From positions 1 through 52,387 of the forward strand of contig DUEC01000014.1 in the NCBI GenBank assembly GCA_011176635.1: DNA of 52,387 bases, in the 5' to 3' direction. Source of the stretch: Dehalococcoidia bacterium. Lineage in GTDB: Bacteria; Chloroflexota; Dehalococcoidia; Dehalococcoidales; BS750m-G39. Shown one piece after another: positions 6,620-46,288 of the stretch. A program made the translations under genes and the position numbers. Position 1 is the stretch's first letter. Every line of letters begins with the position of its first letter. The notes beneath the pieces are model-generated. The model searched no databases, was not told the origin of the DNA, and saw nothing but the letters and a program-made list of their open reading frames with translations.

Positions 6620-6964
6620 TTACCCTGATGGCGGCCGGGTATTGGAGGGCGGTGGGTCCTTCATGCCCAAGCGGAAATACTCCCCGGTGTCCTTGCGCTT
6701 CCAGTTGACCGATATTCTCTGGCTGGTCGGATGAAGCATGGTAATGGCTCCCGGTCGGGGGCACTCTTCAACACAGCCGCCGCAATACCAGCATTCCTCG
6801 GCGTAAAGGACTATGGGCGGTTTCTTCTTCTCCGGGTTGGGCATCATGACATCGGTCGGGCATACCTCCACACAGAGGTTGCAGCCGTTGCAAATATCGG
6901 GATTGAACTCCACCACCTTGTTCGGTGTCGGCGGATTGGATACCATATAAACCTTATCATTCAT
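6620..6964 (-). CDS. 2x[4Fe-4S] ferredoxin, AprB-like partner of the upstream flavoprotein
   Basis: Two cluster motifs, CNGCNLCVEVCP and CWYCGGCVEECP. I prefer the ATG at 6964 (preceded by GAAAGGGGA); the track start at 6994 abuts the upstream stop and is an alternative. Confidence 0.7.
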   Translation of the reverse strand: MNDKVYMVSNPPTPNKVVEFNPDICNGCNLCVEVCPTDVMMPNPEKKKPPIVLYAEECWYCGGCVEECPRPGAITMLHPTSQRISVNWKRKDTGEYFRLGMKDPPPSNTRPPSG

Positions 6965-6994
6965 TTTATTGTATCCCCTTTCTAAATCTTCCAT

Positions 6995-8989
6995 TCAAAG
7001 ACCGCAGTGAAGCTGGTAGTTCTCCTCGTAAGTAGGGGCGTAAGGCGGCTTGAGGTGGTGGTCGAAGGGCAGTTCCCCGACCTTAACCCTGTCGTCCTCA
7101 AGTTTGATGGGAAGCAGCTTTTGCCACTGGGGCGGGTCAAGCTCGGGATAATCAAGCCGGTAAAAGTCCAGATAGAGGCTGCTTGCCTTCCGCACCAGAG
7201 AGGCGTTCATGGTCATCTCGCCAACGGTAATCAGCGAGAAGCATTCCAGCAAGCGCCCCAGCTCATGGGGGTTGGAGGCAAAAGCTTTTGCCCCCTCCGT
7301 CTCTCTTAGTTCTTTGAGTAGTCTCAGGCCCAGATTCAGGGTTAACTCGTTCTTGTACTGGCCGCAGTAGTCTTGCATAACCCTGGCGATAGCGTAGTTT
7401 AACTCCTTCCAGCCGATGCCATCCTTACTCTGTTTCAGCGGCTCATAGGCGATAGCCTTTTCCGCTTCTATCTGCTGGCGGTCTACCACTGGCTCAGGCG
7501 CCATCCTGGCATAGGCGGCTGCCTTTCTGCCGGCATACCTGCCGGTGGTGTGCGATTCGCCATGACAGCCGCCGCCGAAGAGAGAAGAACCGCCGGCGGC
7601 ATACAGGCCTTCCAGAGAAGTCTTTAAGTCCCAGTCAACCAACAAGCCGCCGCCAGCCAAGCCCCGTAGGTAGGGCGGTGACATCCCCGACCAGAAATTG
7701 GAGACGCGGTATGCCTCAGGAAGCATCACCGGCGCCTGGAGCATGTCTTTGTCCGGGTCAAAGCCGGCCTTGGTGAAGGTATCGTATATCGGTATGCGGG
7801 TCTTGCCCTCATTGCCGACCATCATGCCGAATATCGCCCTCCGTTCCGGTTCCGGCAGCCGCGTCAGGTCGGCATAGAGCGGCAGTTTAAACTCCCCTTC
7901 AAGGATGCGCTTGGGCAGGTCGGGAGTAAGCTCATTCAGGACGTACTCCTTGAGGTAATAGTAGAGGCCTATCCCTATGCCCAGCTGGAACTTCTGCCCC
8001 GCTGACGGTAGAAAACGCTCCTCTACCGTTTCCAGCTGCCGTCCCTTAAAATCAACCCAGGGCACCTCTTTGCCCTCAGCATCCACTATGGGCGTGCCGT
8101 GATAGGTGTTGCTGGCATTAGCCATGCTGTAGGGCGCGTAGCCAAAGCCGTACATCCAGCCGGGGCCGGTCTGCTCCATCAGCACGAACTCGGCGCCAGC
8201 CTTCCAGCCCACGGCCTGACCGACACCGGCGCTATTGAGGTCACCCATGGTGCCCGAGGCGGTTAGCTCCGGGGCAAACGACCATAGTCGGCCAACGCCG
8301 CCGGTGGCGATTATGGTGGCTTTCGACCTGAAAACATAGAACTCACCGCTCCGCGTATTGACGCCGGTAGCCCCGACCACTTTTGTTCCTTGCCTGCCGC
8401 CCTCGGTGAGCAGGCTGGTTATGACGATTCTATTATAGACAGCCACACCCAGCCGCTTCATCTGGTTATAGAGGCAGGTCTTGATGTTATACCCCCAGAC
8501 GCGTATAACGTGCCTGTTCTTGTAGTCGTAGGCAAACATTAACTTGGTCTCTTCGTCCCTGAAGTCGGCTCCCTTGAACTCGTCTTCAACATCCCTGATC
8601 CGGACCCCCATTTTTTCACAATCAAGCAGGGTATCCCAGCCCTCCCGGGTGGAAATATAGCGGACAGGGATGCTGGTATAGCCGTGGGCGCTGTCAAATA
8701 CCGCCCTGGTATACATTTCTGGGGTAACCTTAGAGCAGGGATTGGTGCAGGCGCCGTGCCAGTGGTCGACTCCAGCGCCGCCAGCTCCGCTCCTCTTGGC
8801 CATGCCCCTCTCGGCGACGACGGTCTTAGCCCCATTATTAGCCGCGCTTATGGCGACGTGACAGCCAGCGACACCACCACCGATAATAAGGACATCGGCG
8901 GTAACCTCGTTCACCTTGCCGTAGCCTATGGGGTAGGGCCACTCGGGAAGAGTCCCCTCTTTTTGAATATATTCGTGCCAGGTAGCCAT
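6995..8989 (-). CDS. FAD-dependent oxidoreductase of the fumarate reductase / AprA superfamily
   Basis: Dinucleotide fold DVLIIGGGVAGC, RSGAGGAGVDHW, and a C-terminal LVRK..YRLDYPELD segment like AprA/Frd flavoproteins. Length 664 aa. Confidence 0.65.
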   Translation of the reverse strand: MATWHEYIQKEGTLPEWPYPIGYGKVNEVTADVLIIGGGVAGCHVAISAANNGAKTVVAERGMAKRSGAGGAGVDHWHGACTNPCSKVTPEMYTRAVFDSAHGYTSIPVRYISTREGWDTLLDCEKMGVRIRDVEDEFKGADFRDEETKLMFAYDYKNRHVIRVWGYNIKTCLYNQMKRLGVAVYNRIVITSLLTEGGRQGTKVVGATGVNTRSGEFYVFRSKATIIATGGVGRLWSFAPELTASGTMGDLNSAGVGQAVGWKAGAEFVLMEQTGPGWMYGFGYAPYSMANASNTYHGTPIVDAEGKEVPWVDFKGRQLETVEERFLPSAGQKFQLGIGIGLYYYLKEYVLNELTPDLPKRILEGEFKLPLYADLTRLPEPERRAIFGMMVGNEGKTRIPIYDTFTKAGFDPDKDMLQAPVMLPEAYRVSNFWSGMSPPYLRGLAGGGLLVDWDLKTSLEGLYAAGGSSLFGGGCHGESHTTGRYAGRKAAAYARMAPEPVVDRQQIEAEKAIAYEPLKQSKDGIGWKELNYAIARVMQDYCGQYKNELTLNLGLRLLKELRETEGAKAFASNPHELGRLLECFSLITVGEMTMNASLVRKASSLYLDFYRLDYPELDPPQWQKLLPIKLEDDRVKVGELPFDHHLKPPYAPTYEENYQLHCGL

Positions 8990-9117
8990 GCGCCTATCCT
9001 CCTTTTGACAAATATTCTTTCACCCTCGCCCACCGACTCGTTTTCCACTGGATGTTAATTCTTCATTAGCCGAATGTCAACGGTCTCTATGAGTTGGGCC
9101 AAAAAGGGAGGGGAACA

Positions 9118-9179
9118 GTTTTCCCCAGAGTATTGACAGGTAGTAAAAAAAGTGCTATACGGTTGGACAGTTGACAAAC
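9118..9179 (+). promoter_or_regulatory. Promoter plus conserved leader, copy A (-35 TTGACA 9133-9138, 17-nt spacer, -10 TATACG 9156-9161)
   Basis: It matches 53/62 nt, ungapped, to the reverse complement of 13521-13582. It sits just upstream of the 9192 ATG. Confidence 0.6.
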
Positions 9180-9191
9180 AAAGAGGGAATA

Positions 9192-10295
9192 ATGAAAGGG
9201 AAAGCCTCCGCCATTGTTGCCCTGCTAGCTCTTCTGGTGCTAATCGTCACCCTGGTGACCATAGCAAACACCGAGTCAGCCATGGCCCAACCTGTTCTGG
9301 ATACCTGGCAGGTAATTCCCACGCCACCTGATGTAATGTGGAGCCCGGCGCCAGCCACCACCGGTTCATTGATAGATGTAGCTCTTGAGGATAGCACCAC
9401 TCTATATTGTGCTATCGGTTCTAATGTATATACGAGCACCGATAATGGCGCGACTTGGTCATCTGCAGATGCCGGCGTTGACACCATCTTTATGATAGCT
9501 ATGGCACCCGCCTACCCCAATATTCCTGTGGCGGGGCATGTCCTCGTCGGTGGTACTGAAGGCCTTGCCTCCTATTCTACTGATGGCGGGGCTAACTTCA
9601 CGTCACTCCCGCCGCTGCCCGCTGGCGGTAATGTCCAGATGGCGGCTGACACAGACTATGCCACCAACAACACTATCTATGCCGGCAGCAGCAACGGCAA
9701 TGTCTACCGGTGGGTTATCGAGACGAGTACTGATTGGGAGGAGATTAACACCACCATAGCCAATGTCAGCGGGCTGGTTGTTTGCTGCGGGAACCTGTAT
9801 GCCGCCGACGCCACCCCCACTGGCGGCGTATACCGAACGTATAACCCCACAGCCGCCACGCCCGAATGGGAACACCTCACCAACGGCCTTTCCGGCGGAG
9901 AGACTTTTAACCGGGTACCAAGTGCCCTTAGATGCTCTGCTACCGGTGATGGTTATGTTACCCTGTTTGCCATCGATACCGCTAACAATGTTCTTTATGA
10001 ATATATTGAGGCGCCAACGGGTGTGCTATGGCCCCGGATAATTCCACCAATTATCATTATTGCAGGTGGTGTAGGGTTTCTCGTGAAAAAATTACTCGAC
10101 AACAGAGCTAAAAAAATCGTCAGGCAGAAAATCAAGACACGTCTCCGCAAGGGTGCCGGTACTCAGCAAATCAGAGCAGAGAAGCCCATCAAGATAGATT
10201 TTGAAATACGCTTGAGGCCGGTCTCAGACCCCGGCAAGCAAGACATTGAAACAGAAGGTCCTTTAATCACTGATGAAGAGGGGGAGAAACCATGA
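9192..10295 (+). CDS. Membrane-anchored extracytoplasmic Asp-box (BNR) beta-propeller-like protein with basic cytoplasmic tail
   Basis: N-terminal signal/anchor (ASAIVALLALLVLIVTLV), Asp-boxes STDNGATWS and STDGGANFT, a C-terminal TM (IIPPIIIIAGGVGFLV), then a K/R-rich tail. ATG 9192 is preferred over the TTG at 9171. Confidence 0.6.
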   Translation: MKGKASAIVALLALLVLIVTLVTIANTESAMAQPVLDTWQVIPTPPDVMWSPAPATTGSLIDVALEDSTTLYCAIGSNVYTSTDNGATWSSADAGVDTIFMIAMAPAYPNIPVAGHVLVGGTEGLASYSTDGGANFTSLPPLPAGGNVQMAADTDYATNNTIYAGSSNGNVYRWVIETSTDWEEINTTIANVSGLVVCCGNLYAADATPTGGVYRTYNPTAATPEWEHLTNGLSGGETFNRVPSALRCSATGDGYVTLFAIDTANNVLYEYIEAPTGVLWPRIIPPIIIIAGGVGFLVKKLLDNRAKKIVRQKIKTRLRKGAGTQQIRAEKPIKIDFEIRLRPVSDPGKQDIETEGPLITDEEGEKP

Positions 10296-10885
10296 GCGAC
10301 TCACAGATTACCCTAAACCAGTTCTTCTCTCCAGAAAAGAAATTATCGCCTGAACAATTGTCCTCTCTAGAATCGAATAAGAAAGTGTCCTCGCTGAAAG
10401 AGAAGATTTGGAAAGAGACCAAGGTCAAAGGGCCCCTGGTACTCGATTTAATCATCAAGAAGACCGCAGAAATATTAGACATCGGCATCCTGGATATCAT
10501 GGTGAAGGCCTGGAATAAATACAAAATTCTCCTCAAATATCTGGATAAGGAAAAGTATCCTCCGGGTGAAACCTTCTTAGTTCCTCTGGCTGAACATACC
10601 ATCAAATCAGAACACCGTCCTTCCATAGAGATACTGATAAACGACCAACCTGCCGGCAAGATTGAGTTCAGCATCTCTATTTCTATCATGCTCGAAGGTG
10701 TAATCTTGAAAATCCAGGACGGAAAGATTAAGGGGATAACCACGGGGACCTGTAAAGGGAAGGGGGCATTCGCGTGTGAAAATGTTGTACTCCTGGAGAA
10801 GAAAACGGCCTCAATTCCTTTGCCGGGCTCAATCGACCTCGGCGAAGGCATACCTATACCTTCTCCGACCAAGCAACGCGGCTAA
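10292..10885 (+). CDS. Hypothetical protein (197 aa), translationally coupled to the propeller protein
   Basis: ATGA stop/start overlap at 10292-10295. I recognise no motif. The gene is AT-rich. Confidence 0.5.
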   Translation: MSDSQITLNQFFSPEKKLSPEQLSSLESNKKVSSLKEKIWKETKVKGPLVLDLIIKKTAEILDIGILDIMVKAWNKYKILLKYLDKEKYPPGETFLVPLAEHTIKSEHRPSIEILINDQPAGKIEFSISISIMLEGVILKIQDGKIKGITTGTCKGKGAFACENVVLLEKKTASIPLPGSIDLGEGIPIPSPTKQRG

Positions 10886-11013
10886 TCCCAGTCCTTACAC
10901 TCAATAAGGATATCAAAACAAAAAAGTTAACCGACACAAAATAGAGATTGAAAAAAGAAACCAGGGGGGTACGACTTAAGAAATCTATCCCTTTATGCTC
11001 TTTTAGAAACGTG

Positions 11014-13161
11014 CTAATGACCTTGGACTAAAACAAATCCTCTGCTTACCAAGTCCTTTAAGAAATTTACACACCCTGCTTCGGTACCGTCGAGTGATAT
11101 GTGATAGCTTTTTGCTAACTTGGACGCAATTTGATGAACGTTAGCCTTGCCATTGCAAAGTTCAAGGATATCCTTTGCCGACGATGTTATTGAAATCATC
11201 TTACCATCATTAAAGTTATAAACTACATACGTTTCCTCTGGAAGAACCTCGGTATCAACTCCTCGATTTATATTCTCTTGAATTTCCAATAAGTCGAAGT
11301 GGACTGTATTATAAGTCACCCCGTCTTTTAACCTTGGTACTGTATCGAACCATATTCCTTCCTGAGTCGAAGTCATGGATTTGTCCCCATCGGGGCTCTT
11401 CTCACTGATGAGTGACAGATTATTGATTCCATACCGGGAGAGATATAGGAGTAGATGCTCACGGTACAAACTTCCCCAGACTTTGAAGTTGCCATACTCA
11501 TCAGCTATCCGTTCTAAGAAAGCTTTGTATATTTCGCTCGCTTTTTCGTTGTTCAGCCCCGTGTTTACATCATAGTTATACCAAAGTTGAAAATCCTTAT
11601 TTTCATCTATCTGAATGCGACTGATTCCATATTGCTCTGGATGCTTTCTCGCTGGCGAATATTTCCCCAGAGTGAAAACACTGACGCCAACAGAATGGAT
11701 AATGTCCTTGTTGGAAAGTGCGAAATCTATGGTCTCTTGAGCTTCCTCTTCTATCTCTGTTGGGAAGCCAAAAAACAAGAAAGCGTGGTTCCATATTCCA
11801 GCTTTAGAGCTGTTCTTACACACTTCTGTGATGGTCTGTTTATCTATCCCCTTTTTCATCAAAGCCAAAACTCTATCGCATCCAGATTCTAAGCCGAATA
11901 AAAGCATTTTGAACCCGGCTTCGGCAATTTTACAGCAAAGAGCTGGTGTAAACTGGCGTTCGAACCTCGCATCGGCAAGACATTGGATATCTAACTTCCT
12001 TTCGATGATTTTTTCTGAGAGACTTTTGAAAACATTCGGTGCTATTGCCTCGTCAGAAAATGCAAAGTGACTAGTTCTGTACTTTTTAGACAGCTCCTGT
12101 AAATCATCGACTACTCTTTCACTGTGTCTAGGAACATATCTTTTGCCATAAATATAGCTGTGATCACAAAATGCGCACTTTCCCCAATAACAGCCTCTAC
12201 AGGACATGATTGGCAGAATTGGCTCGGGCGAGAAGTATAGATTCAAAGGGAAATCATCAAAACATGGGGTAGGCAGGGAATTTATGTCCTCTGGAGAACC
12301 AGGCTCGTTGACACATACTTCTGTTCCGTCATAATAGATCAGGTTGGGGACGGTACTTAGACTTTTTCCATCAGCGAGACATTTTGCAAGTTCTGATAAT
12401 GGACGCTCTCCTTCATATACAATGACACTATCAAGAAATGTTGAAAATAATTTCTTCACTTGTGGCAAAATGTCAGTCAAACGGGTAAAAATGCTTCCAC
12501 CGACCACAACATGGGCTTTACAGTTTGAGCGCTTAAGCAAGCGTGCCAAGGTTAGTCCAGGAATAATTTGCGAAATACCAACGATAGAGAGTCCTATAAT
12601 ATCTGGATTTTCCCGAAAAATATACGGTAGCAAATTATTCTCATAAATTTCAATGAATGGATTTTTTGCCCTATCCAGTGTAGCTTTTATGACATCACTC
12701 GATGATTTGTAAGAGTAATTCATTTCAAACGAAGTAAAACCTAGTTTTGTGGGGTAATATGCCACTGAGACTAGGGCGAGGGCTTGATTTACGATGCTTT
12801 GACTTCCAGAAAGTTTGGGGAAATTGTAGAAATTTTGCTTACTTCGAAATACCTTCTTTGCTCCATCAATCTCTTTAATTACTTGCGGAGCAAATGCCAT
12901 GACACAAAACAGAGTCTCATAATATTTTTGTTCAGCAGCGGATAACTTTACTTTCGAATCTAGCTTATCGAAATTATGGGATACTCGCTTGTACATTCTC
13001 CTTAAGTATTGCTTCGTCAAAATGATGTCGTAAGCCTCAACATTGAAATCCTTTTGAATTACATTATGACCCTCAGATTGCAAATAACTTGTCAACGAAG
13101 GCAAACTTAGGTACGGCTGAGTTGGCAGCCACTGTGGTGGGAAAATAAGCAGAATTTTCAA
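11014..13161 (-). CDS. Cobalamin-binding-domain (class B-like) radical SAM enzyme with C-terminal PqqD-like peptide-recognition (RRE) domain
   Basis: N-terminus KILLIFPP..IIGLSIVG..VVVGG (B12-binding-like), cluster motif CRGCYWGKCAFC, C-terminus AKDILELCNGKANVHQIASKLAKSY..GCVNFLKDLVSRGFVL (PqqD-like). TTG 13161 sits 7 nt after AAGGAGG; GTG 13167 is an alternative start. Confidence 0.8.
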   Translation of the reverse strand: MKILLIFPPQWLPTQPYLSLPSLTSYLQSEGHNVIQKDFNVEAYDIILTKQYLRRMYKRVSHNFDKLDSKVKLSAAEQKYYETLFCVMAFAPQVIKEIDGAKKVFRSKQNFYNFPKLSGSQSIVNQALALVSVAYYPTKLGFTSFEMNYSYKSSSDVIKATLDRAKNPFIEIYENNLLPYIFRENPDIIGLSIVGISQIIPGLTLARLLKRSNCKAHVVVGGSIFTRLTDILPQVKKLFSTFLDSVIVYEGERPLSELAKCLADGKSLSTVPNLIYYDGTEVCVNEPGSPEDINSLPTPCFDDFPLNLYFSPEPILPIMSCRGCYWGKCAFCDHSYIYGKRYVPRHSERVVDDLQELSKKYRTSHFAFSDEAIAPNVFKSLSEKIIERKLDIQCLADARFERQFTPALCCKIAEAGFKMLLFGLESGCDRVLALMKKGIDKQTITEVCKNSSKAGIWNHAFLFFGFPTEIEEEAQETIDFALSNKDIIHSVGVSVFTLGKYSPARKHPEQYGISRIQIDENKDFQLWYNYDVNTGLNNEKASEIYKAFLERIADEYGNFKVWGSLYREHLLLYLSRYGINNLSLISEKSPDGDKSMTSTQEGIWFDTVPRLKDGVTYNTVHFDLLEIQENINRGVDTEVLPEETYVVYNFNDGKMISITSSAKDILELCNGKANVHQIASKLAKSYHISLDGTEAGCVNFLKDLVSRGFVLVQGH

Positions 13162-13221
13162 AGGCACCGCCTCCTTACCTTGCTGCTAAAAAAGAACAAT
13201 TATCAACTTAAACGGGAGAAA

Positions 13222-13253
13222 GGGCGCTCCGAACCTCTATCTTCGGAGCGCCC
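13222..13253 (-). terminator. Strong hairpin (12-bp perfect stem, 8-nt loop) between peptide gene and radical SAM gene; likely partial terminator/attenuator
   Basis: Minus strand reads GGGCGCTCCGAA-gatagagg-TTCGGAGCGCCC followed by TTTCTCCCGTTT. It lies ~50 nt after the peptide stop codon. Confidence 0.6.
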
Positions 13254-13303
13254 ACGAAGTTGGTCAAGAACTTATCATACTAGTATTGGTTGTGGTTCTT
13301 ACT

Positions 13304-13495
13304 TCACCCTTCTTTCTTTTCGGGTTGAAGAATGTTGTTCTGCCCGCCGTTGATGTTATTTGCGGCAGCTAGCATTGCTTCCATCCCAGGGATTGCTCCA
13401 ATAGCCTCTTTCAGCACCGCCGGTGCAAATACCTTTAAAGCTTCTACCGCCTTTCTAACTTCCGCACTGCCAACTCCTCTTTTTCTCATCACCAT
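13304..13495 (-). CDS. 63-aa candidate precursor peptide (MVMRKRGVGSAEVRKAVEALKVFAPAVLKEAIGAIPGMEAMLAAANNINGGQNNILQPEKKEG)
   Basis: AGGAGG lies 8 nt upstream of ATG 13495. The gene is directly upstream of, and co-directional with, the rSAM/RRE gene. The N-terminus looks helical and a GG motif sits 12 residues from the C-terminus. Confidence 0.55.
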   Translation of the reverse strand: MVMRKRGVGSAEVRKAVEALKVFAPAVLKEAIGAIPGMEAMLAAANNINGGQNNILQPEKKEG

Positions 13496-13520
13496 AATTA
13501 TCACCTCCTTTCTGTTTTTA

Positions 13521-13582
13521 GTTTGTCAGGTGTCCAAATATATAGCACTTTTATTGCTATCTGTCAACACTCTGGGGAAAAC
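13521..13582 (-). promoter_or_regulatory. Promoter plus conserved leader, copy B (-35 TTGACA 13562-13567, 17-nt spacer, -10 TATATA 13539-13544, minus strand)
   Basis: It is an inverted copy of 9118-9179 (53/62 identical) and sits upstream of the peptide gene. Confidence 0.6.
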
Positions 13583-13776
13583 GTTTGCCAGGCTAGGCAA
13601 TAAACGGGTAAGGCGAGACCGCTTCAGAAGGCTTTCAACAAAACATTGTTTTGTGGCCTGGAATCACATCGGTTGCTCTTAAGCCGTGTGGCAATGTCTT
13701 GGCTAGAATAGGCTTATCTAAAGCCGTGTTGGAGAGCGATAACGACTACTGGATGCGGGCGGACGCTCCCGGCTTA

Positions 13777-13852: not shown

Positions 13853-13880
13853 TTGATATCAGGCTGGAAACTAGTATAAT
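13853..13880 (+). promoter_or_regulatory. Candidate sigma70-type promoter of the first AOR gene (TTGATA-16-TATAAT)
   Basis: -35 at 13853-13858 and -10 at 13875-13880, ~40 nt upstream of ATG 13920. Confidence 0.4.
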
Positions 13881-13919: not shown

Positions 13920-15728
13920 ATGACGGCAGGGTATATGGGAAAGCTATTATTCGTTGATCTTTCCACAGGGGAGATGAAAGAGGAAACACCTGACCAGAGC
14001 CTCTATCGAGATTTCATCGGTGGCTATGGCCTTGGGGCCAGGGTTCTTTACCGCCATCAGAAGGGTGGGGTAGACCCGCTGGGAGTGGAGAATACGCTTG
14101 GCCTGGTTACCGGCCCGCTCACCGGTACTCCGGCACCCTTTGGTTGCCGATACGCCGCTGTAGCCAAATCGCCACTCACTGGCGGGTGGGGAGATGCCAA
14201 TTGCGGGGGGGATTTCGGCCCCAACCTCAGGTTTGCCGGCTATGATGGCGTGTTTTTTAGCGGTATTTCGGAAAAGCCGGTTTACCTCTTTATTGATAAT
14301 GGCAAGGCCCGGTTAAGAGAGGCGGCCCACCTCTGGGGAAAGGTTACCTTTGAAACTGATGACAGGCTGCAGGATGAACACGGCAAAGCGGCCAAAGTTG
14401 TCAGCATCGGGCCGGCTGGGGAAAAACTGTCTCTTGTCTCCTGTCTTATGAACAACAGAGTAGATGCTGCCGGGCGCTCTGGTTTAGGGGCGGTAATGGG
14501 CTCCAAAAAGCTCAAGGCGGTGGTGGTGAAGGGAGAGGGGAAGGTCCCCGTAGCCGATATCAAGGCGGCCGATGATTTAAGAAAAGAGCATATAGCCGAG
14601 ATGAAGGCTCGCCCCTTCCTTGAGGATTTCCACAGGTACGGCACCAGCAGCCACACCGCCGAGTCAGCCCACAGCGGCGATACACCGGTTAAGAACTGGG
14701 GCGGCGTTGGCGTCATTGACCTGCCCGATGTCTCGGCTCTTGAAAAGGAAGTGACCGACGCCATGGTGGAGAGCAGAACCGGCTGCTGGCGTTGTCCGGC
14801 GGCTTGCAAGGGCAGACTAAAGGAGGGAGCCGGCGAGTATAAGTACCCGGCCGGTATTCACCGACCAGAATATGAGACCCAGGCCGCCTTCGGAACCATA
14901 TGCCTCAACAATAACAGCGAGGCAATAGCCATGGCCGGCTACATCTGCGACGGCTACGGGCTGGATACTATCTCCACCGGTACTATCATCGCCTTTGCCA
15001 TGGAATGCTATGAGCATGGTCTTATTACCAAGGCGGATACCGACGGACTAGAGCTAACCTGGGGCAATCACCAGGCTATGATCGCCATGCTCGAGAAGAT
15101 TGCCCGGCGGGAGGGCTTCGGTGACGTCCTCGCCGACGGGGTAAAGGTAGCCGCCGAGAAAATCGGCAAGGGAGCCGAGGAATACGCGGTTCATATCGGG
15201 GGGCAGGAACTGGGGATGCACGACCCCAGATTTGACTTCCCGCCCTTTGCTGGTATACCGGCAGCCGCCAGGTACCAGATGGATGCTACCCCCGGCCGAC
15301 ACACCGCTGGTTTTGGGCCCAGCCAATTTCAGGGTTACGTTGTCAATGCCAGTGGGCTTTGCCTGCACAGCAATCTGGCGGTGGCTGACCCCAACAAGTA
15401 CCTGGTGGCATTCATGAGCGCCGTGACCGGCTGGGACCGCTCCCTCAATGAACTGCTCGAGTGCGGTGAGAGGATTGGCAATATGAGGCACGTCTTTAAC
15501 CTCCGCGAAGGTATCAATCCTCTGGAGCTCAAGGTACACGGCAGAATAATCGGGCGGCCTCCTCAGAAAGAAGGGCCACTGGCCGGGGTATCAGCAGATA
15601 TCAAGGCCCAGGACTACTGGAACCTCGGCGCCCTTGATTGGGACCGGCAAACAACCAAACCTAGCCAGAGAAAGCTGCTGGAATTGGGTTTAGATGATAT
15701 AGCCCGTGAGCTCTGGCCGCCTAAATAA
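13920..15728 (+). CDS. aor: Aldehyde:ferredoxin oxidoreductase (tungsten/molybdopterin AOR family), copy 1
   Basis: AFOR_N-like N-terminus (GGYGLGARVLY, SPLTGGWGDANCGG), Fe-S motif CWRCPAAC, 602 aa. Confidence 0.85.
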   Translation: MTAGYMGKLLFVDLSTGEMKEETPDQSLYRDFIGGYGLGARVLYRHQKGGVDPLGVENTLGLVTGPLTGTPAPFGCRYAAVAKSPLTGGWGDANCGGDFGPNLRFAGYDGVFFSGISEKPVYLFIDNGKARLREAAHLWGKVTFETDDRLQDEHGKAAKVVSIGPAGEKLSLVSCLMNNRVDAAGRSGLGAVMGSKKLKAVVVKGEGKVPVADIKAADDLRKEHIAEMKARPFLEDFHRYGTSSHTAESAHSGDTPVKNWGGVGVIDLPDVSALEKEVTDAMVESRTGCWRCPAACKGRLKEGAGEYKYPAGIHRPEYETQAAFGTICLNNNSEAIAMAGYICDGYGLDTISTGTIIAFAMECYEHGLITKADTDGLELTWGNHQAMIAMLEKIARREGFGDVLADGVKVAAEKIGKGAEEYAVHIGGQELGMHDPRFDFPPFAGIPAAARYQMDATPGRHTAGFGPSQFQGYVVNASGLCLHSNLAVADPNKYLVAFMSAVTGWDRSLNELLECGERIGNMRHVFNLREGINPLELKVHGRIIGRPPQKEGPLAGVSADIKAQDYWNLGALDWDRQTTKPSQRKLLELGLDDIARELWPPK

Positions 15729-25949: not shown

Positions 25950-26735
25950 ATGGACTTAAAACTAACCGACAAGGTAGCCTTGATAACCGGTACCGGCAGC
26001 CAGATAGGCTTCGGTAAGGGTATAGCCCTGGCTCTAGCCAGGGAAGGGTGCCACATAATTAGCGTCGATGTAGACCTTGAAGGAGCCCAAAAAACAGCGG
26101 CTGAGGTCAGGGCTTTAGGGCGTAAGGCTATTGCCATCAAGGCAGATATAACTAAAAAGGCCCAAGTTGACAAGGCAGTTAAGGAAGCCCTGGCTGAATT
26201 TGGTAAAATAGACATACTGGTAAATAATGCCGGCCGTGCCAGCGGCGTGCGGCCCTTCGTCACCACCACCGAAGCGCAGTGGGACATAGATATAGATGTT
26301 AACCTCAAGGGCACGCTATATTTCACCCAGGCCGTTCTCCCTCACATGCTTGAGCGCAAATACGGCAAGATTGTCAATTTCTCGACACATGCCGCCCACC
26401 AGCCAACAGGTCTGGCTGGTGCCGGTCCCTACATCGCGGCTAAGGCAGGAGTGGTGATGTTCAGTAAAACGCTTGCCGGCGAGGTGGGGCCTTCGGGAAT
26501 AAATATAAACATAATCGCCCCCGGCCCAGGGGCTACCAATTTCCACCGTACCAGCGGGGCTCCTCCTCAAATGGTAGAACTCGTCGAATCAATGGCCAAG
26601 GAAGGCCTGGCTGCCACGCCCCAGGATATTGCCAATACGGTAGCTTTTCTGGTCTCGGACGTAGCCAAGAAACTCTCAGGGCAGGTTATTGAGGTCTTTG
26701 CCCCCGCCGGGAGTCCTGGTGGCGGGGCCAATTAA
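25950..26735 (+). CDS. Short-chain dehydrogenase/reductase (SDR)
   Basis: TGTGSQIGFG, NNAG, and Y..AAKAG (YxxxK). Confidence 0.85.
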   Translation: MDLKLTDKVALITGTGSQIGFGKGIALALAREGCHIISVDVDLEGAQKTAAEVRALGRKAIAIKADITKKAQVDKAVKEALAEFGKIDILVNNAGRASGVRPFVTTTEAQWDIDIDVNLKGTLYFTQAVLPHMLERKYGKIVNFSTHAAHQPTGLAGAGPYIAAKAGVVMFSKTLAGEVGPSGININIIAPGPGATNFHRTSGAPPQMVELVESMAKEGLAATPQDIANTVAFLVSDVAKKLSGQVIEVFAPAGSPGGGAN

Positions 26736-30508: not shown

Positions 30509-31345
30509 TTAGGTAAGACCGCCGCTGATGCCGATGGCTTCTCCGGTGATATAGGTGGACATGTCAGAAACCAGGAAATAGGCCAGGTCGGCGACTTCGT
30601 CAGTGGTACCGAGCCGACCCAGCGGTATGAGAGCGCCCATCTTCTGGTAGTCCTTTTCCCTAGCCTCATCCCAGGTGATGCCCTCCGCCTTGCTCATTTT
30701 AGCAAAGGCTTCGTCCCTCAGGTTAGTGATGACGGCGCCGGGATTAATGGCGTTGACGTTTATCTTATGCGGCCCCAACTCCAGAGCCAGCGTTTTTACC
30801 AGGCTGATGACTCCGTACTTAGAGACACTATAAGCAACGCTCCCGGCGACGCCGTGCGTCCCCGCCATTGAGGCTATAAGCACAATCCGGCCGCCTTCGC
30901 CGCGGGCAATCATGCTTTTAGCCACCGCTTTTGAAATGAGAAAGGAGCCGGTGGTATTGACATCAAGAATATCCCGCCAGTCTTTCTCAGAAAGCTCGAC
31001 GGCCGGCTTTCCCACCGGGCCGCGAATGGCGGCGCAATGCACCAGGATATCAATCCTGCCGAATTTTCCCAGCGTTTTGTTTACCATTTCATCGACGTTT
31101 TTACTATTGCTTATATCCAGCACCAGGGCCATGGCTTGCCTGCCCAGGGCTTCTATTTCGGCGACCTCGGCCTCAAGACCACCCCACTCCTCGTCACCGG
31201 GGAAAAGGCTCTGGGGGGCTGGATACTTATCGGTAATGACCAGGTCAGCCCCTTCCCTGGCCAGGCGCAGGGCGATGGCATGCCCCATGCCTCTCTTGCT
31301 GGCAGTGCCGGTAACTATGGCCACCTTACCCTCAAGGCTACTCAT
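30509..31345 (-). CDS. Short-chain dehydrogenase/reductase (SDR)
   Basis: TGTASKRGMG and YSVSK (YxxxK). Confidence 0.85.
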   Translation of the reverse strand: MSSLEGKVAIVTGTASKRGMGHAIALRLAREGADLVITDKYPAPQSLFPGDEEWGGLEAEVAEIEALGRQAMALVLDISNSKNVDEMVNKTLGKFGRIDILVHCAAIRGPVGKPAVELSEKDWRDILDVNTTGSFLISKAVAKSMIARGEGGRIVLIASMAGTHGVAGSVAYSVSKYGVISLVKTLALELGPHKINVNAINPGAVITNLRDEAFAKMSKAEGITWDEAREKDYQKMGALIPLGRLGTTDEVADLAYFLVSDMSTYITGEAIGISGGLT

Positions 31346-31387: not shown

Positions 31388-33232
31388 TTAGCCGAGTTCT
31401 TGAGCAACATCCTCCAGCCCAAGTTCTTTTAGTTTCTTATTGCTGGGTCTGGCTGTTTTCTGGTCCCAATCCATGGCGGCCAGGTATTCCCTGACCAGGG
31501 TATCTTCGTCGACGGTAACCCCGGCCAGGGGTCCCGCTTTTAGCGGCGGCTTGCCCACTAACCGACCTGAGATCTGGTAGGGCAGGGGACTAATCCCTTC
31601 GCGAATGTTAAAGGCCTGCCGGATATTGCCGATTCTCTCCCCGGTTAATACCAGCTCGTCGGTGGTTACGTCCCAGCCGGTAACGGCCCTCATAAACTCG
31701 ATGACGGCATCAACATTAGGCAGGGCGTTGTAGACAAAGAGACAGAACCCGGAAGCCATCAAGAAGTGCTGGAAGTTGCTGCCTTTTCTATATACTTGCC
31801 CCCGGCCGCTGAATGACTGCTTGTTGAATTTGGGTAATAGTCCATCAATATGATGCTCCTCAGAGCCTTGAGTATGGCGGGCGGGGGTGGCGTTGGTGAT
31901 ATAGGTGGTGGCTAAAGCAAAACCGGCGATGGGGTTGTGGGCGGGAATCTCCTGCCCCCGAACATGTATGGCATACTGGTCGGCGCCCTTGCCGATTTTC
32001 TGGGCGGCTGACTTCACTCCGTCAGCTAATATGTCGCCGAAACCTTCTCTCCTGGCCATTTTTTCGGTCATGGCCACTATGGCTTTATGGTTTCCCCAGG
32101 TCATTTCAATGCCATCGGTGTCCTTTTTATTGATGAGCCCTTTCTCATAGCATTCCATGGCGAAGGCAATGATGGCTCCGGCAGAGATGGTATCAACCCC
32201 GTAGCGGTTACAGATATCGTTTACCTTAATTATTGATTCAACATTGTCGTTGAGACAATCGCTGCCAAACATAGCCGATGTCTCGTACTCAGGTCTATGA
32301 CAGCCTGCCTGATATTTATATTCTCCCGTCCCTTCCTTCATAATTGCTTCACAGCCGATAGGACATAGATAGCAGCTAGCCCTCTTCAACCAGTGGCCTC
32401 TCACGGCCTCGGCGCCGATGGGTTTGGCATCGGGAAAATCAACCACGGCTACCCCTCCCCAGTTTTTTACCGGCGAATCCCCGCTCTCTATGGAGGAAAC
32501 AGTAACGAAGGTCGTCCCGAACTTCTTCAGCTGGTCAAGAGGCCCCTGCAGTTCACCGAGGTACTTTTTTCTTAATTGCTTAGTTCTTTCTTCATCGGCA
32601 ACCGGCACTTTCATCTTGCCTCTTACCGCCACTGCTTTGAGCTTCTTGGCCCCCATCACGGCGCCTAAACCCGAGCGGGCCGCAGCATGACCGTGGTCGT
32701 GGATAATGCTAGCGACGCGGGATAGTTTTTCTCCCGACTGGCCGATGCAGGCCACGGCTGCATCCTTGCCCAATTCAGATTTTAGCGTGTCTTCGGTCTG
32801 GTAGGTATCCTTACCCCATAGCTGCGCGGCATCCCTGAGCTCAGGCCTGCCGTTATCAATAAAGAGGTAAACCGGCTTTTCTGATATGCCGGTGAAGAAC
32901 AGGCCGTCATAGCCGGCGAATTTCAGGTAAGCGCCGAAATAACCGCCTGAATTAGCGTCACCCCAGCACCCGGTCAACGGCGATTTCCCGACCACGGTGA
33001 ATCTTGTACCGGAAATGGCCTGGGTGCCGGTAAAGGGACCGGTCAGAATACCCAGGATATTATCCGGCCCCAGGGGTTCGACGCCAGCCTTCTGCTCACT
33101 GAAGATAGTCCTGGCGCCAATGCCATAACCGCCGATGAACTGACGTCCCAGTTTTTCATCGAGCGGCTCGTCCTTGAGCTCATTTTTGGATAAATCCACT
33201 CTAAGTATCTTGCCCATGTAACCGCAAGCCAT
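31388..33232 (-). CDS. aor: Aldehyde:ferredoxin oxidoreductase (AOR family), copy 2
   Basis: Paralog of 13920-15728 (SPLTGCWGDANSGG, CYLCPIGC). ATG 33232 lies 7 nt after GGGAGG; the track start at 33265 is unlikely. Confidence 0.85.
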   Translation of the reverse strand: MACGYMGKILRVDLSKNELKDEPLDEKLGRQFIGGYGIGARTIFSEQKAGVEPLGPDNILGILTGPFTGTQAISGTRFTVVGKSPLTGCWGDANSGGYFGAYLKFAGYDGLFFTGISEKPVYLFIDNGRPELRDAAQLWGKDTYQTEDTLKSELGKDAAVACIGQSGEKLSRVASIIHDHGHAAARSGLGAVMGAKKLKAVAVRGKMKVPVADEERTKQLRKKYLGELQGPLDQLKKFGTTFVTVSSIESGDSPVKNWGGVAVVDFPDAKPIGAEAVRGHWLKRASCYLCPIGCEAIMKEGTGEYKYQAGCHRPEYETSAMFGSDCLNDNVESIIKVNDICNRYGVDTISAGAIIAFAMECYEKGLINKKDTDGIEMTWGNHKAIVAMTEKMARREGFGDILADGVKSAAQKIGKGADQYAIHVRGQEIPAHNPIAGFALATTYITNATPARHTQGSEEHHIDGLLPKFNKQSFSGRGQVYRKGSNFQHFLMASGFCLFVYNALPNVDAVIEFMRAVTGWDVTTDELVLTGERIGNIRQAFNIREGISPLPYQISGRLVGKPPLKAGPLAGVTVDEDTLVREYLAAMDWDQKTARPSNKKLKELGLEDVAQELG

Positions 33233-35287: not shown

Positions 35288-35306
35288 ATGGTGGGCGGTA
35301 CTGGAC
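35288..35306. repeat. 19-bp direct repeat, tRNA-proximal copy (att-like)
   Basis: Identical to 13777-13795. It covers CCA, the discriminator base, the 3' acceptor strand and part of the T-stem of tRNA-Val, plus 1 nt beyond. Confidence 0.7.
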
Positions 35307-35364
35307 TTGAACCAGTGACCTCTTGCGTGTGAAGCAAGCGCTCTAACCACTGAGCTAACCGCCC
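35289..35364 (-). tRNA. tRNA-Val (anticodon CAC), CCA encoded
   Basis: Minus strand reads GGGCGGTTAGCTCAGTGGTTAGAGCGCTTGCTTCACACGCAAGAGGTCACTGGTTCAAGTCCAGTACCGCCCACCA. It has a 7-bp acceptor stem, anticodon loop TTCACAC and T-loop TTCAAGT. Confidence 0.9.
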
Positions 35365-37115: not shown

Positions 37116-38072
37116 CTATCTGACTTTAAGCGTAACCTGAATTTCGCCGCCTTTCCTGACCACCTGTTCCACAACCGGAATCTCTCTCAGGATGCCGAGC
37201 AGAGGAATCGGCTCCTCGGCGGAGACGACAATTCGGCTGCCCTTATCCACCGAACCCCCGACCAATACCAGGCGCAGGTTTTCCACCTGGCCCAGCTCTT
37301 TCCCCAGATTCTCCAGCTGAGCTAAGTCTATCGGCGGCATTATGACCAGTTCCACCATCCCCTCATAGGGCCTGGCCATTACCGCCGCCTCCGCTTCCTC
37401 CCCACCTGCCTCCTCAGCTTGTTTGGCCTCTTTGGCTTCCCGCTTAGCCTTATCCTTGGCCTCTTTAGCCTCTTTTTTGGCCTTCTCCTTGGCTTCTTTG
37501 GCCTCCTGCTTCGCCTTCTCTTCAACTTCTTTGGCTGCCTTTTGAGCTTGCTCTGCGGTCGTTTCCTCGGCTGACTCTTTGGTTTGCTCTTCAGCCTCTT
37601 TAGGTTCTTCCTTAGCTATTTCCTCAGCTTCTTTGGCTTCCTCTTCGGCCGCCTTGGCCTCTTTAGCCTCTTTTTTGACTTCTTCTTTTGCCTTCTCCCC
37701 GGCCTCTTTCTCAACTTCCTTAGCTTCTTCCTTAGCCTTCTCCTCAGCCTCTTTCTCGGCTTCCTGCTTCGCCTTTTCCTCGGCTGCCTGTTTAGCCTGC
37801 TCCTCGGCTTCCTTTCGAGCTTGCTCTTCAGCCTCTCTTTGAGCTTCTTCTTCAGCTTCCCTTTGAGCCTTCTCTTCGGCCGCCTTAGCTTCCTCCCTGG
37901 CCCTCTCCTCAGCCTCCTGAGCTTCCCTCTCGGCCCTCTCCTGGGCTTCCTTAGCCTCCCCACCCCCCTTCCTTATCTTGGGCTTATTGCCCGGGCTGCT
38001 CCTCATCACGGGGTAGCCGCACCACTGGCAATAGTCACCGGTAGTCTCTCGGCCGCAATTAGGACAAATCAT
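37116..38072 (-). CDS. Zinc-ribbon protein with long Lys/Glu/Ala-rich coiled-coil-like repeat and small C-terminal globular domain
   Basis: N-terminus MICPNCGRETTGDYCQWCGYP, then ~200 aa of EEKA/KEAE repeats, then a C-terminal ~90 aa non-repetitive domain. A promoter lies upstream. Confidence 0.7.
   Translation of the reverse strand: MICPNCGRETTGDYCQWCGYPVMRSSPGNKPKIRKGGGEAKEAQERAEREAQEAEERAREEAKAAEEKAQREAEEEAQREAEEQARKEAEEQAKQAAEEKAKQEAEKEAEEKAKEEAKEVEKEAGEKAKEEVKKEAKEAKAAEEEAKEAEEIAKEEPKEAEEQTKESAEETTAEQAQKAAKEVEEKAKQEAKEAKEKAKKEAKEAKDKAKREAKEAKQAEEAGGEEAEAAVMARPYEGMVELVIMPPIDLAQLENLGKELGQVENLRLVLVGGSVDKGSRIVVSAEEPIPLLGILREIPVVEQVVRKGGEIQVTLKVR
37390..37960. repeat. Degenerate coding tandem repeat (GCCTC/TTCCTT-rich on +; encodes the KE-rich segment on -)
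   Basis: The low complexity is visible in the sequence and produces long spurious ORFs in other frames. Confidence 0.7.
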
Positions 38073-43941: not shown

Positions 43942-43963
43942 TAATTGAGCAGAGGGGAGGCTG

Positions 43964-45085
43964 ATGAAGATGAAAAGAATAATAAAGAAGATAATAAGGG
44001 GAGAGAAGGGTCAAGCGCTGATGATAACCTTGATTCTGCTCCTTCTGGGCAGTCTAATCACCGTTCCTCTTCTGGGTTTTGTGGGCACCGGGGTGGAAAC
44101 GGGTGCCGTCTATGAGGAGGACATGCTTGAGCTTTATGCCGCCGATTCCGGTATAGAGGATGCCATACAGCAGATAATAATCGGCGCCGAGGGCTTGCCC
44201 AGCGAGACCGACCCGATATGGTCATACCAGATAGCCGACGTGAACGGCAAAGAGGTATACGTTACCATAACCTATCTAGATAACGCCGCTTATAAAATCA
44301 CCTCCACAGCCGGCAACACTCAAATTACTGTCTTCATTGCCCCGTTGTACGGTGACTATGGCGGCATACTTGATAACGTCATCACCAGTCAGGGCGATTA
44401 TACATTGCAAGGTCCGACTACTGTTGAGCCCCCAGAGGGAGAAGAGCACGGACCTGTAGACAACTATGAAGGAGACTGGCCTACGCCTGAGCAACTTATC
44501 TTATTTTACTCTGAGGATGTAGAAGGTGTAGACCCCTACCCTAGCGGTACTCTGGATGTGGCCGACTATGCTGCTACTGGAATTGGGCCGCTTTATAGAG
44601 ATGGCACACTATCAATTGTAAACAGTGGGTCTGCGGGGCTAACAGTTTCACTTAATGACACTCTCTATATTACCGGCAACACCCAGATTGGGGCGACAGG
44701 ACATGATTTCACCCTCAACCTCAACGGGCAGACAATATTCGTCGAGAGTGACGAGACAGGCGGATATGCTCTTCAAATCGGGGGTAAATGCAACCTCACC
44801 GGTTCGGGAGTCATTATTGCCATTGGTAGTATTCAATTTAAACCTAATATGAGCTCCGGTCCCTCCGATTACATTCTTGTCATGTCGGTAATAGGTACGA
44901 CTTATATGCAGCCCAATGGCGATTTTTACGGCACTTTAGCCGGCTCCTCTGAAGTCTATATACAAAATGGTAGTGTCCACTGGTCACAGCCAGGCGAAGG
45001 TGGAATAAACTTCCCCGGCGAGGGTGGCAGCGGCAGCGAAGGTACTCAATACCTGATTCACTCTTGGGAGATTGGCCAACCATAG
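43964..45085 (+). CDS. PilX_N-like pilus-associated protein, paralog 1
   Basis: N-terminus MKMKRIIKKIIRGEKGQALMITLILLLLG and LYAADSGIEDAI (PilX_N-like). The second ATG (43970) is better spaced from the SD. Confidence 0.6.
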   Translation: MKMKRIIKKIIRGEKGQALMITLILLLLGSLITVPLLGFVGTGVETGAVYEEDMLELYAADSGIEDAIQQIIIGAEGLPSETDPIWSYQIADVNGKEVYVTITYLDNAAYKITSTAGNTQITVFIAPLYGDYGGILDNVITSQGDYTLQGPTTVEPPEGEEHGPVDNYEGDWPTPEQLILFYSEDVEGVDPYPSGTLDVADYAATGIGPLYRDGTLSIVNSGSAGLTVSLNDTLYITGNTQIGATGHDFTLNLNGQTIFVESDETGGYALQIGGKCNLTGSGVIIAIGSIQFKPNMSSGPSDYILVMSVIGTTYMQPNGDFYGTLAGSSEVYIQNGSVHWSQPGEGGINFPGEGGSGSEGTQYLIHSWEIGQP

Positions 45086-45106
45086 AAAGGCCGAGGGGAG
45101 GAGGCG

Positions 45107-46288
45107 ATGAAGATGAAAAGAATAGCCAAGAAGATAATAAGGGGGGAGAAGGGGCAATCACTGATTGCGGTCCTGATTCTGCTCCTCCTGGGCGGTCTGG
45201 TCACCGCTCCGGTTCTGAGTTTGGTGACCACCGGTGTGGATACGAATGCCGTCTATGAGGATGACATGAACGAGCTTTACGCCGCCGATGGCGGCATTGA
45301 GGACGCCATAAGGAATATAATAGCCGGCGCCGAGGGCTTGCCTAGCGAGAGTGACCCAATAGTGTCATACCAAATAGATGTGAATGACAAAAATGTAGAC
45401 GTTACCATAACCTACATAGATGACACCACCTATAGAATCACCTCCACCGCCACCACCGATGAAGAATCCAGCACCACCATTGAATCTTACCTTACCTCAA
45501 GCGGCGGTTCTGGCATCTTTGACAATGCCATTACCGCCCTCAACGGCGATATAACCCTTGGCGGCAACGCCCGGGTTATCTCATCGCCAACCAGCGGCGA
45601 GGGCGATATCTTCGCCAACGGTGACATTAACCTGAGTGGTAACGCCAGAGTAGAAGGCGACGGTACCGCCACCGGAGAAATCGATTTAAGCGGTAACTCC
45701 CAAATCGAGGGTGATGAGACCGAAGGCGCGACACCGGTAACTCCGCCCGATATAGACAGCGCCCCATACCTGCAGGAGGCGGAGATGGGCGGCGTCCATG
45801 AAGGTAACCTGAGCCTCAGTGGTAACGGCACTTACGACTTAGGGCCGCTGCATATTACCGGAAACCTTTCCATTTCCGGCAACCGCACGGTAACACTGGA
45901 AGGAACGGTTTATGTTGATGGCACCATCAGTATGAGCGGTAACACCCGCATCGAGGGCGGGTTTACCATTGTGGCCGATGGCAATATTGGTCTAACGGGA
46001 AATAGTAAACTCGACCTTGAGGACATCCCCTTCGTCTTTTCCACCAACGGCAACATTTCAACTACCGGCAATAACTGGACATCAGCCATAGTATACGCCC
46101 CTAACGGTCACGTCAACTTGACAGGAAACAGTAGGATATACGGGACTGTGCTCGGGCTTAGCGTTACCGGCTCGGGCAACAACAAGATTGAGTACCCCAT
46201 AGGGCTGAGCGACAGCGAGAGCCTGCCCGGCACCGGAGATGGCACCTACCAGATTCGCACCTGGGATATCAGTCACCAGCAGGAGTAG
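45107..46288 (+). CDS. PilX_N-like pilus-associated protein, paralog 2, with beta-helix-like (L/I)x(S/T)GN repeats
   Basis: Its N-terminal ~110 aa align to paralog 1. About ten copies of LSGN/LTGN/ISGN occur at ~20-aa spacing. Confidence 0.6.
   Translation: MKMKRIAKKIIRGEKGQSLIAVLILLLLGGLVTAPVLSLVTTGVDTNAVYEDDMNELYAADGGIEDAIRNIIAGAEGLPSESDPIVSYQIDVNDKNVDVTITYIDDTTYRITSTATTDEESSTTIESYLTSSGGSGIFDNAITALNGDITLGGNARVISSPTSGEGDIFANGDINLSGNARVEGDGTATGEIDLSGNSQIEGDETEGATPVTPPDIDSAPYLQEAEMGGVHEGNLSLSGNGTYDLGPLHITGNLSISGNRTVTLEGTVYVDGTISMSGNTRIEGGFTIVADGNIGLTGNSKLDLEDIPFVFSTNGNISTTGNNWTSAIVYAPNGHVNLTGNSRIYGTVLGLSVTGSGNNKIEYPIGLSDSESLPGTGDGTYQIRTWDISHQQE

Follow-up and report, generated by a model that had tools for sequence, protein, structure and literature searches.

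Putative mobile promoters were surveyed by Matus-Garcia, Nijveen and van Passel (NAR, 2012; summarized in PMC3575422). As that survey is described, a mobile-promoter pair consists of two sequences at least 80% identical over at least 50 nucleotides, standing before unrelated genes and sought in the interval from -150 to -50. More than 4000 families of this kind were reported in 1362 genomes, and promoter reuse was proposed as a route to the rapid rewiring of transcription. Here, we describe what is probably a natural case of such reuse in a stretch of 52,387 nucleotides from a Dehalococcoidia bacterium (GenBank assembly GCA_011176635.1, contig DUEC01000014.1, positions 1 to 52,387; "the window" in what follows). 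The window contains two inverted copies, A and B, of a 62-nucleotide promoter-like module, and these head two convergent operons. One operon is resident and encodes a cell-surface propeller protein. The other lies in an island with genes resembling those for peptides that the ribosome makes and that are modified after translation (RiPPs). The reading that we favor, and hold to be probable although well short of assured, is that copy B is a reused, inverted copy of the neighbor's promoter that now heads the acquired island, and that it probably wires the RiPP-like genes into the neighbor's regulation.

The argument relies on the following features, given in the coordinates of the window.

9118 to 9179 (extended repeat, 9111-9182), forward strand: copy A of the predicted promoter module, with -35 hexamer TTGACA at 9133-9138, TG at 9153-9154 and -10 hexamer TATACG at 9156-9161.
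9163 to 9179, forward strand: conserved start-site region of copy A, TTGGACAGTTGACAAAC.
9192 to 10295, forward strand: gene (JGI gene call) for a 367-amino acid propeller protein whose parts are a signal peptide, an ectodomain resembling a BNR/Asp-box beta-propeller, a transmembrane helix and a lysine-rich tail.
10292 to 10885, forward strand: second gene of operon A, for a 197-amino acid protein of an uncharacterized family; its start overlaps the propeller stop.
10919 to 13702, no strand assigned: strain-specific island of about 2.8 kilobases (kb) and 41% guanine plus cytosine (GC), with the radical S-adenosylmethionine (SAM) gene, the peptide gene and copy B; delimited by blastn of the related contigs L009 and L014 against the window.
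11014 to 13161, reverse strand: gene for a B12-binding radical SAM enzyme of 715 amino acids whose C-terminal domain is PqqD, for peptide recognition (Pfam Radical_SAM, B12-binding and PqqD).
13304 to 13495, reverse strand: gene for a 63-amino acid precursor-like peptide, the first after copy B, with the Shine-Dalgarno (SD) sequence AGGAGG 8 nucleotides upstream.
13537 to 13521, reverse strand: start-site region of copy B, TTGGACACCTGACAAAC.
13521 to 13582 (extended repeat, 13518-13589), reverse strand: copy B of the predicted promoter module, with -35 hexamer TTGACA at 13567-13562, TG at 13547-13546 and -10 hexamer TATATA at 13544-13539.
13853 to 13880, forward strand: predicted promoter of the aldehyde:ferredoxin oxidoreductase (AOR) gene, consensus-like (TTGATA-16-TATAAT) and outside the repeat, in a region 100% conserved in L009.

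The ungapped alignment of the two copies has 53 identities in 62 positions (85%; 9118-9179 against the reverse complement of 13521-13582), as a first-pass annotation of this DNA had reported, and a repeat finder run over the whole window extends the pair to 72 nucleotides at 82% identity. Both values are above the identity from which the survey is described as recognizing its pairs. Also like those pairs, the repeats stand before genes that are not paralogous, one encoding a BNR-propeller protein and the other a 63-amino acid peptide, and no insertion sequence element is associated with them. Two differences separate this locus from the survey so described. Relative to the start codons, the repeats run from -74 to -13 (A) and from -87 to -26 (B), which is nearer to the gene and only partly within the surveyed interval, so that the -10 hexamer and the start site are included. 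Further, comparative data here point to an ancestral copy and to a strain-specific acquired island as its recipient.

Acquired genes are also recruited to ancestral regulons, as with the targets of PhoP or SsrB in Salmonella (PMC2650801, PMC3098285). The present locus resembles these cases in that foreign genes would come under resident control signals. It differs in what is borrowed. In those cases, the foreign DNA usually has short binding sites already or comes to acquire them; at the present locus, what appears to have been copied, from a neighbor, is an entire promoter of about 62-72 nucleotides.

A third point of comparison comes from RiPP clusters themselves. The nisA and nisF promoters are both recognized by NisR, a two-component regulator that the cluster itself encodes. 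Here, too, a precursor-peptide operon and a nearby second operon share promoter-proximal sequence, through which their induction would be coordinated. The nis operons are, however, inherited together and with their own regulator, while in the present locus the second operon is resident and independently distributed, and no regulator gene is called in the island. Finally, two similar sequences in inverted orientation recall the terminal inverted repeats of transposons and of miniature inverted-repeat transposable elements (MITEs), as well as invertible promoters. Unlike those systems, the repeats at this locus do not end where the variable unit ends, they are accompanied by neither a transposase nor an invertase among the called genes, and they have neither a target duplication nor a second orientation in the assemblies.

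The promoter elements named by the first-pass annotation are present in both copies: TTGACA, a spacer of 17 nucleotides, and TATACG (A) or TATATA (B). That annotation did not mention the "TG" of an extended -10 element, one base 5' of the -10 hexamer, which both copies also have. Each copy faces its downstream gene, the propeller gene with its ATG at 9192 and the peptide gene with its ATG at 13495; an SD sequence and the ATG follow 25-45 nucleotides downstream. This is a layout of the sigma-70 type, and the two copies may be read as complete promoter modules of that type at the heads of the two convergent operons. The AOR gene promoter, in turn, suggests that this organism uses signals of the sigma-70 type.

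The promoter core of 46 nucleotides reads TTGACAGNTAGNAANAAAAGTGCTATANNNTTGGACANNTGACAAA, and the block between the -35 and -10 hexamers reads AAAAGTGC; a block of 17 nucleotides, TTGGACAnnTGACAAAC, is conserved at and past the predicted start site. The limits of the similarity are sharp, with the 120 nucleotides upstream and the 118 nucleotides downstream of the repeat matching at the level of shuffled sequence. With such abrupt ends, the repeated unit would correspond to positions -49 to +12, approximately, in the predicted promoter, ending before each gene's own ribosome-binding site.

The repeat is also singular. No other long repeat pair of the window is intergenic; the remaining long pairs are located in paralogous coding genes. 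Either half of it, with up to 3 mismatches allowed, occurs exactly twice in the 52 kb, where dinucleotide shuffling gives an expectation of 0.00. No third copy was found in the window plus 9 kb more of the contig, even with 13-14 substitutions allowed in 38 specified positions. A scan of 185,579 species genomes for the exact pattern returned one match, a chance one in a metagenome-assembled genome of Lachnospiraceae; the same scan of metagenome contigs returned orthologous copy-A sites only, which is a weak test, as that collection evidently does not hold the source sample. The 62-mer was thus not seen as a dispersed repeat beside unrelated genes, with two copies in about 61 kb and none extra in the exact-pattern scans. 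A JGI metagenome contig of 78.6 kb has the window in reverse complement. Three other samples yielded contigs with 100% identity to the window (L019, 18.6 kb; L020, 5.3 kb; L021, 1.7 kb), and the first two contigs cover both copies in the same layout. Because these independent contigs carry both copies identically, the layout is not an artefact of assembly.

Some smaller features surround the copies. Short dyads precede them, GGGGAA-N5-TTCCCC before A (9110-9126) and GGCAAAC/GTTTTCC before B (13575-13589). The right half of each dyad is GTTTTCC(CC), which is the start of the repeat; on the minus strand at A, the dyad resembles a terminator-like hairpin with its run of T. The dyad was considered as an activator site and rejected, the left halves being different in A and B and the dyad being absent from the orthologous A copies. 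A perfect palindrome of 17 base pairs, ACAAAACATTGTTTTGT, lies at 13638-13654, in the island-specific 120 nucleotides and about 80 nucleotides upstream of the -35 hexamer of copy B. Chance alone would be expected to place roughly one such palindrome in 52 kb.

Which copy came first is a question that related strains can address. These were recovered by way of the 197-amino acid protein and a DNA pattern scan, and they are 84-93% identical in nucleotides to the window over shared blocks. Named relatives of the genes indicate, if only loosely, bacteria of the Chloroflexota/Dehalococcoidia kind. All relatives have the same genes on the left: a histidine kinase, MTHFR, two receiver proteins, and PK_C-like and FAD-binding genes. 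The propeller/197-amino acid operon occupies the same syntenic place in every related strain found (L009, L014, L015, L022, L023 and L007), with a single promoter module before it; L008 too has the orthologous module at this position. Copy B is absent from L009, L014 and L007, no comparable promoter repeats were found in the relatives, and no related strain found has the peptide and radical SAM genes.

What the relatives have instead, between the 197-amino acid gene and the AOR gene, varies. In L009, the segment 10919-13792 of the window is replaced by 99 unrelated nucleotides (L009 8628-8726). In L014, L015, L022 and L023, a gene for a 490-amino acid PD40 beta-propeller (L014 2682-4159) replaces the segment 10887-13702; it begins 15 nucleotides past the stop of the 197-amino acid gene, with an SD sequence of its own. 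The right flank of L007 is wholly different. The island accordingly has its left junction at 10886/10887 against L014 and at 10918/10919 against L009, and its right junction at 13702/13703 and 13792/13793, respectively. This gap is a hypervariable slot with at least three alleles among strains whose identity elsewhere is 91-99%: 99 nucleotides, the PD40 gene, and the peptide and radical SAM island. Because relatives carry other contents in the same place, the peptide/radical SAM segment, including copy B and about 120 nucleotides upstream of it, can be taken as one allele of the slot. The PD40 cargo would also depend on this type of promoter, because it starts only 15 nucleotides from the 197-amino acid stop.

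The junctions of the slot are nested, 33 nucleotides at the left being common to the window and L009 only, and 90 nucleotides at the right being common to the window and L014 only. Variation is not confined to this side. From about 6929 to 8861, the genes for a 664-amino acid FAD-binding protein and a ferredoxin are strongly divergent from L009 and L014, with only short patches of about 71% identity, in DNA that is 85-93% identical on either side. Because this pair is a divergent allele, the promoter/propeller block has variable segments on both flanks. The single transfer RNA gene, for tRNA-Val (CAC), lies at 35289-35364 on the reverse strand; since the two are not neighbors, nothing points to integration targeted to a tRNA gene.

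The island is compositionally foreign. The radical SAM gene has a GC content of 0.40 at third codon positions, against 0.62-0.70 in the flanking genes, and its closest homologues have 37-42% GC. Homologues of the enzyme are spread over Dehalococcoidia, Methanoperedens, Aminicenantes and Theionarchaea, and the island appears to have been acquired horizontally. The conserved peptide adjoins an enzyme that combines B12-binding and radical SAM domains with PqqD, and the two would form a typical pair of RiPP precursor and maturase; the enzyme resembles NCBIfam TIGR03975, with a score under the cut-off. The helical leader and asparagine-rich tail of the peptide recur in L001, L003 and L004. In the closest radical SAM/peptide loci (L001-L004, 70-81% identical in amino acids), the DNA upstream of the peptide is unrelated, and neither the propeller nor the 197-amino acid protein is a neighbor. 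The 62-mer motif was not found in L001-L004, nor in L010, which has a 70% orthologue of the 197-amino acid operon. Because the closest loci have unrelated DNA upstream, copy B was evidently not brought in by the peptide/radical SAM module. The interval between the two convergent operons contains only weak hairpins (z about 0) and no strong intrinsic terminator.

Copy A, in contrast to B, has orthologues, and these allow constraint to be examined. Among the orthologous A copies, the invariant pattern is TTGACAG.TAG.AA.AAAAGTGCTATA...TTGGACA..TGACAAA. Against L007, the core is identical at 42 of 46 positions, as compared with 76% identity at third codon positions in the adjacent gene and 85 matches in 147 over the remaining spacer. 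Against L009, the corresponding values are 45 of 46, 88%, and 120 of 141. Copy A is, on these comparisons, best taken as the ancestral and constrained promoter of the resident operon. The same constraint would seem to have followed the module into copy B. Of 51 positions, 6 vary among orthologues, and on these fall five of the nine differences between A and B (hypergeometric P = 3e-4). Because the differences concentrate at these positions, the same blocks appear to be protected in the paralogue B.

One part of the module behaves differently. The 14 nucleotides upstream of the -35 hexamer, GTTTTCCCCAGAGT, are the most variable part among orthologues, copy A matching L009 at 9 of 14 positions and L007 at 6 of 14. 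Here, however, A and B agree at 14 of 14. In the other 48 nucleotides the relationship is reversed, with A matching L009 at 47 of 48 and B at only 39 of 48. The upstream part suggests that copy B is related specifically to the copy A of this lineage. The simplest explanation of the mosaic would be that the promoter was duplicated at an earlier time and that its upstream part underwent gene conversion more recently.

The mechanism that we propose assembles these elements. A module consisting of TTGACA, a 17-nucleotide spacer, an extended -10 element of the form TGcTATAnn and a conserved start-site block would be present twice in this strain. Copy A would be the ancestral promoter of the resident cell-surface operon, which encodes the BNR-propeller protein and its 197-amino acid partner. 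Copy B would be an inverted copy of A, reused to head the acquired island of about 2.8 kb in the hypervariable slot, and the two copies would have exchanged sequence in this lineage over their upstream 14 nucleotides. The acquired genes would then be transcribed by the same sigma factor as the propeller operon and be subject to any regulator with affinity for the shared blocks. In this way, promoter reuse, or capture, would lead to co-regulation of the island and the neighboring operon. The cargo of the slot may be tied to this type of promoter in both of its gene-bearing alleles, the PD40 gene by being appended to the operon and the radical SAM gene by way of copy B. The co-regulation, the direction and mechanism of the copying, and the gene conversion are, of course, what we infer.

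Several points weigh against this proposal. Promoter activity and start sites are predictions from sequence rather than from transcripts. Both -10 hexamers lack their final T, and a simple promoter scan recovered neither copy. No more than four different forms of the module underlie the statistics of constraint. At the core's level of divergence, agreement of A and B at 14 of 14 upstream positions would arise by chance in about 5% of cases. The gene calls and Pfam matches of the island include no regulator gene, and the proposal offers no mechanism for placing a copy of about 70 nucleotides, inverted, 4.3 kb away. Further copies elsewhere in the genome, including a third that served as donor, are possible; the search for copies covered about 61 kb of this strain, and the public scans required exact matches to the pattern.

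The last point leads to an alternative in which the 62-mers belong to a larger dispersed family, either the promoters of a multi-operon regulon or a MITE-like repeat, with A and B perhaps both converted from a third copy. Such a donor would also explain why the upstream 14 nucleotides are common to A and B and absent from orthologous A copies, and the limited search space leaves room for it. We nevertheless think it improbable, since no third copy was found in the window and the 9 kb beyond, the public scans gave only a chance match and orthologous A sites, and the repeat has neither internal terminal inverted repeats nor a target-site duplication. The first-pass annotation had itself favored a different account, that the two operons are co-regulated and constitute one functional system. 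In such a system, for example, the modified peptide could act with or on the surface propeller, and a shared promoter or operator would ensure their joint production. The first half of this claim has held up as plausible: because the shared blocks are under constraint, common transcriptional control may apply. The genes are, of course, adjacent, they share the module, and the layout is unchanged in three samples. The distribution of the genes, however, does not support one functional system. Six related loci hold the propeller/197-amino acid operon without the peptide and radical SAM genes; four close radical SAM/peptide loci lack the propeller and 197-amino acid genes and the motif; and the 197-amino acid family follows other surface proteins as well, such as the CARDB protein in L010. 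Because each operon occurs without the other in relatives, they are not an obligate system. A strain-specific association of the two is possible, but a single functional system is unlikely. A related and doubtful idea is that the slot is a dedicated "expression slot" for exchangeable cargo under one type of promoter, the conserved blocks being the operator of a hypothetical regulator of strain-variable surface or secreted functions. The PD40 cargo would then be appended to the operon, the radical SAM cargo would run in the opposite direction from its own promoter copy, whose similarity gene conversion would maintain, and the surface propeller might be a partner of the RiPP-like peptide.

Inverted copies on either side of a 4.3-kb segment naturally invite the view that they are the ends of a mobile cassette of about 4.5 kb (9118-13582), which the first-pass annotation had offered as its alternative, or the sites at which an invertible segment recombines. 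The strains contradict this, as the boundaries of presence and absence differ from those of the repeat. The variable unit contains copy B only and ends at about 10887/10919 and 13702/13792, at distances of 1.7 kb and 0.1-0.2 kb from the repeats; strains without the segment retain copy A and its operon. Composition shifts inside the segment and not at copy A. The genes called within about 10 kb include no transposase or recombinase, the inner four being those for the propeller, the 197-amino acid protein, the radical SAM enzyme and the peptide, and all three assemblies have one orientation. The cassette or inverton has, in our view, almost no chance of being correct. Scarcely better are the prospects of a regulatory RNA leader (a riboswitch or attenuator) in the conserved transcribed part, which the first-pass annotation had also suggested. 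The 17 nucleotides of the block around and after the predicted start site are conserved, and a CACCU in copy B could pair with an SD sequence AGGUG. That pairing is, however, absent in copy A, no more than about 13 of the conserved nucleotides would be part of the transcript, and folding is no better than that of shuffled sequences (z = +0.71, -0.74, +0.59 and -0.04). No Rfam match was found, at the gathering score or at E<=1. An RNA element is very improbable on this evidence, and reuse of the neighbor's promoter remains the reading that we prefer.

Promoter reuse has, of course, been described before, and the general significance of the locus is modest. Its value would be as a well-resolved natural example of an acquired biosynthetic island expressed by way of the promoter of an adjacent resident operon. 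The relatives display the state before the event, show the slot with other cargo, and reveal constraint on the core of the promoter. The locus also corrects two misreadings. Inverted repeats, here, are not the ends of a transposon. And the four genes between them are not one cluster, which means that software for genome mining ought to keep the propeller operon apart from the RiPP cluster.

The proteins of the resident operon merit a brief description. The 367-amino acid protein has weak matches to Pfam BNR and NCBIfam F510_1955, and its distant homologues are BNR propellers annotated as "PSII stability/assembly factor-like." It diverges faster than its partner, with 71% amino acid identity to its L007 orthologue against 84% for the 197-amino acid protein, and within its gene the part encoding the transmembrane helix and lysine-rich tail has a GC content of 0.45, against 0.55 for the ectodomain. 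The 197-amino acid protein belongs to a compact family of 153 homologues and has no match in Pfam, NCBIfam, PADLOC or the sequences of the PDB. In its AlphaFold2 model (pLDDT 82), the N-terminal half is helical and there are beta-hairpins of great length; a Foldseek comparison with the PDB gave gasdermin pores as the best match, which is not significant (E about 0.03, TM-score 0.15). Members of the family are always encoded directly 3' of a gene for a secreted or surface protein, either a BNR propeller or, in L010, a CARDB protein.

The genes that flank this locus in the window have redox functions: the FAD-binding/ferredoxin pair on the left, and AOR and ThiS on the right. Farther away, an open reading frame of 318 amino acids without a Pfam match (37116-38072, reverse strand) contains degenerate tandem repeats, of 33 nucleotides and related, at 37384-37958; its forward strand is rich in C and T, and the predicted product is therefore rich in lysine, glutamate and alanine. 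Two direct repeat pairs of 73-81% identity occur in the window, one in the region of the type IV pilus/pseudopilin genes (43963-44311 and 45106-45451) and one within the gene for a 457-amino acid TackOD1/Mrr_cat protein (50321-50620 and 50711-51010). The inverted pairs 15411-15524 with 31583-31696, and 25971-26048 with 31250-31327, are paralogous coding sequence, from two AOR genes and two short-chain dehydrogenase (SDR) genes.

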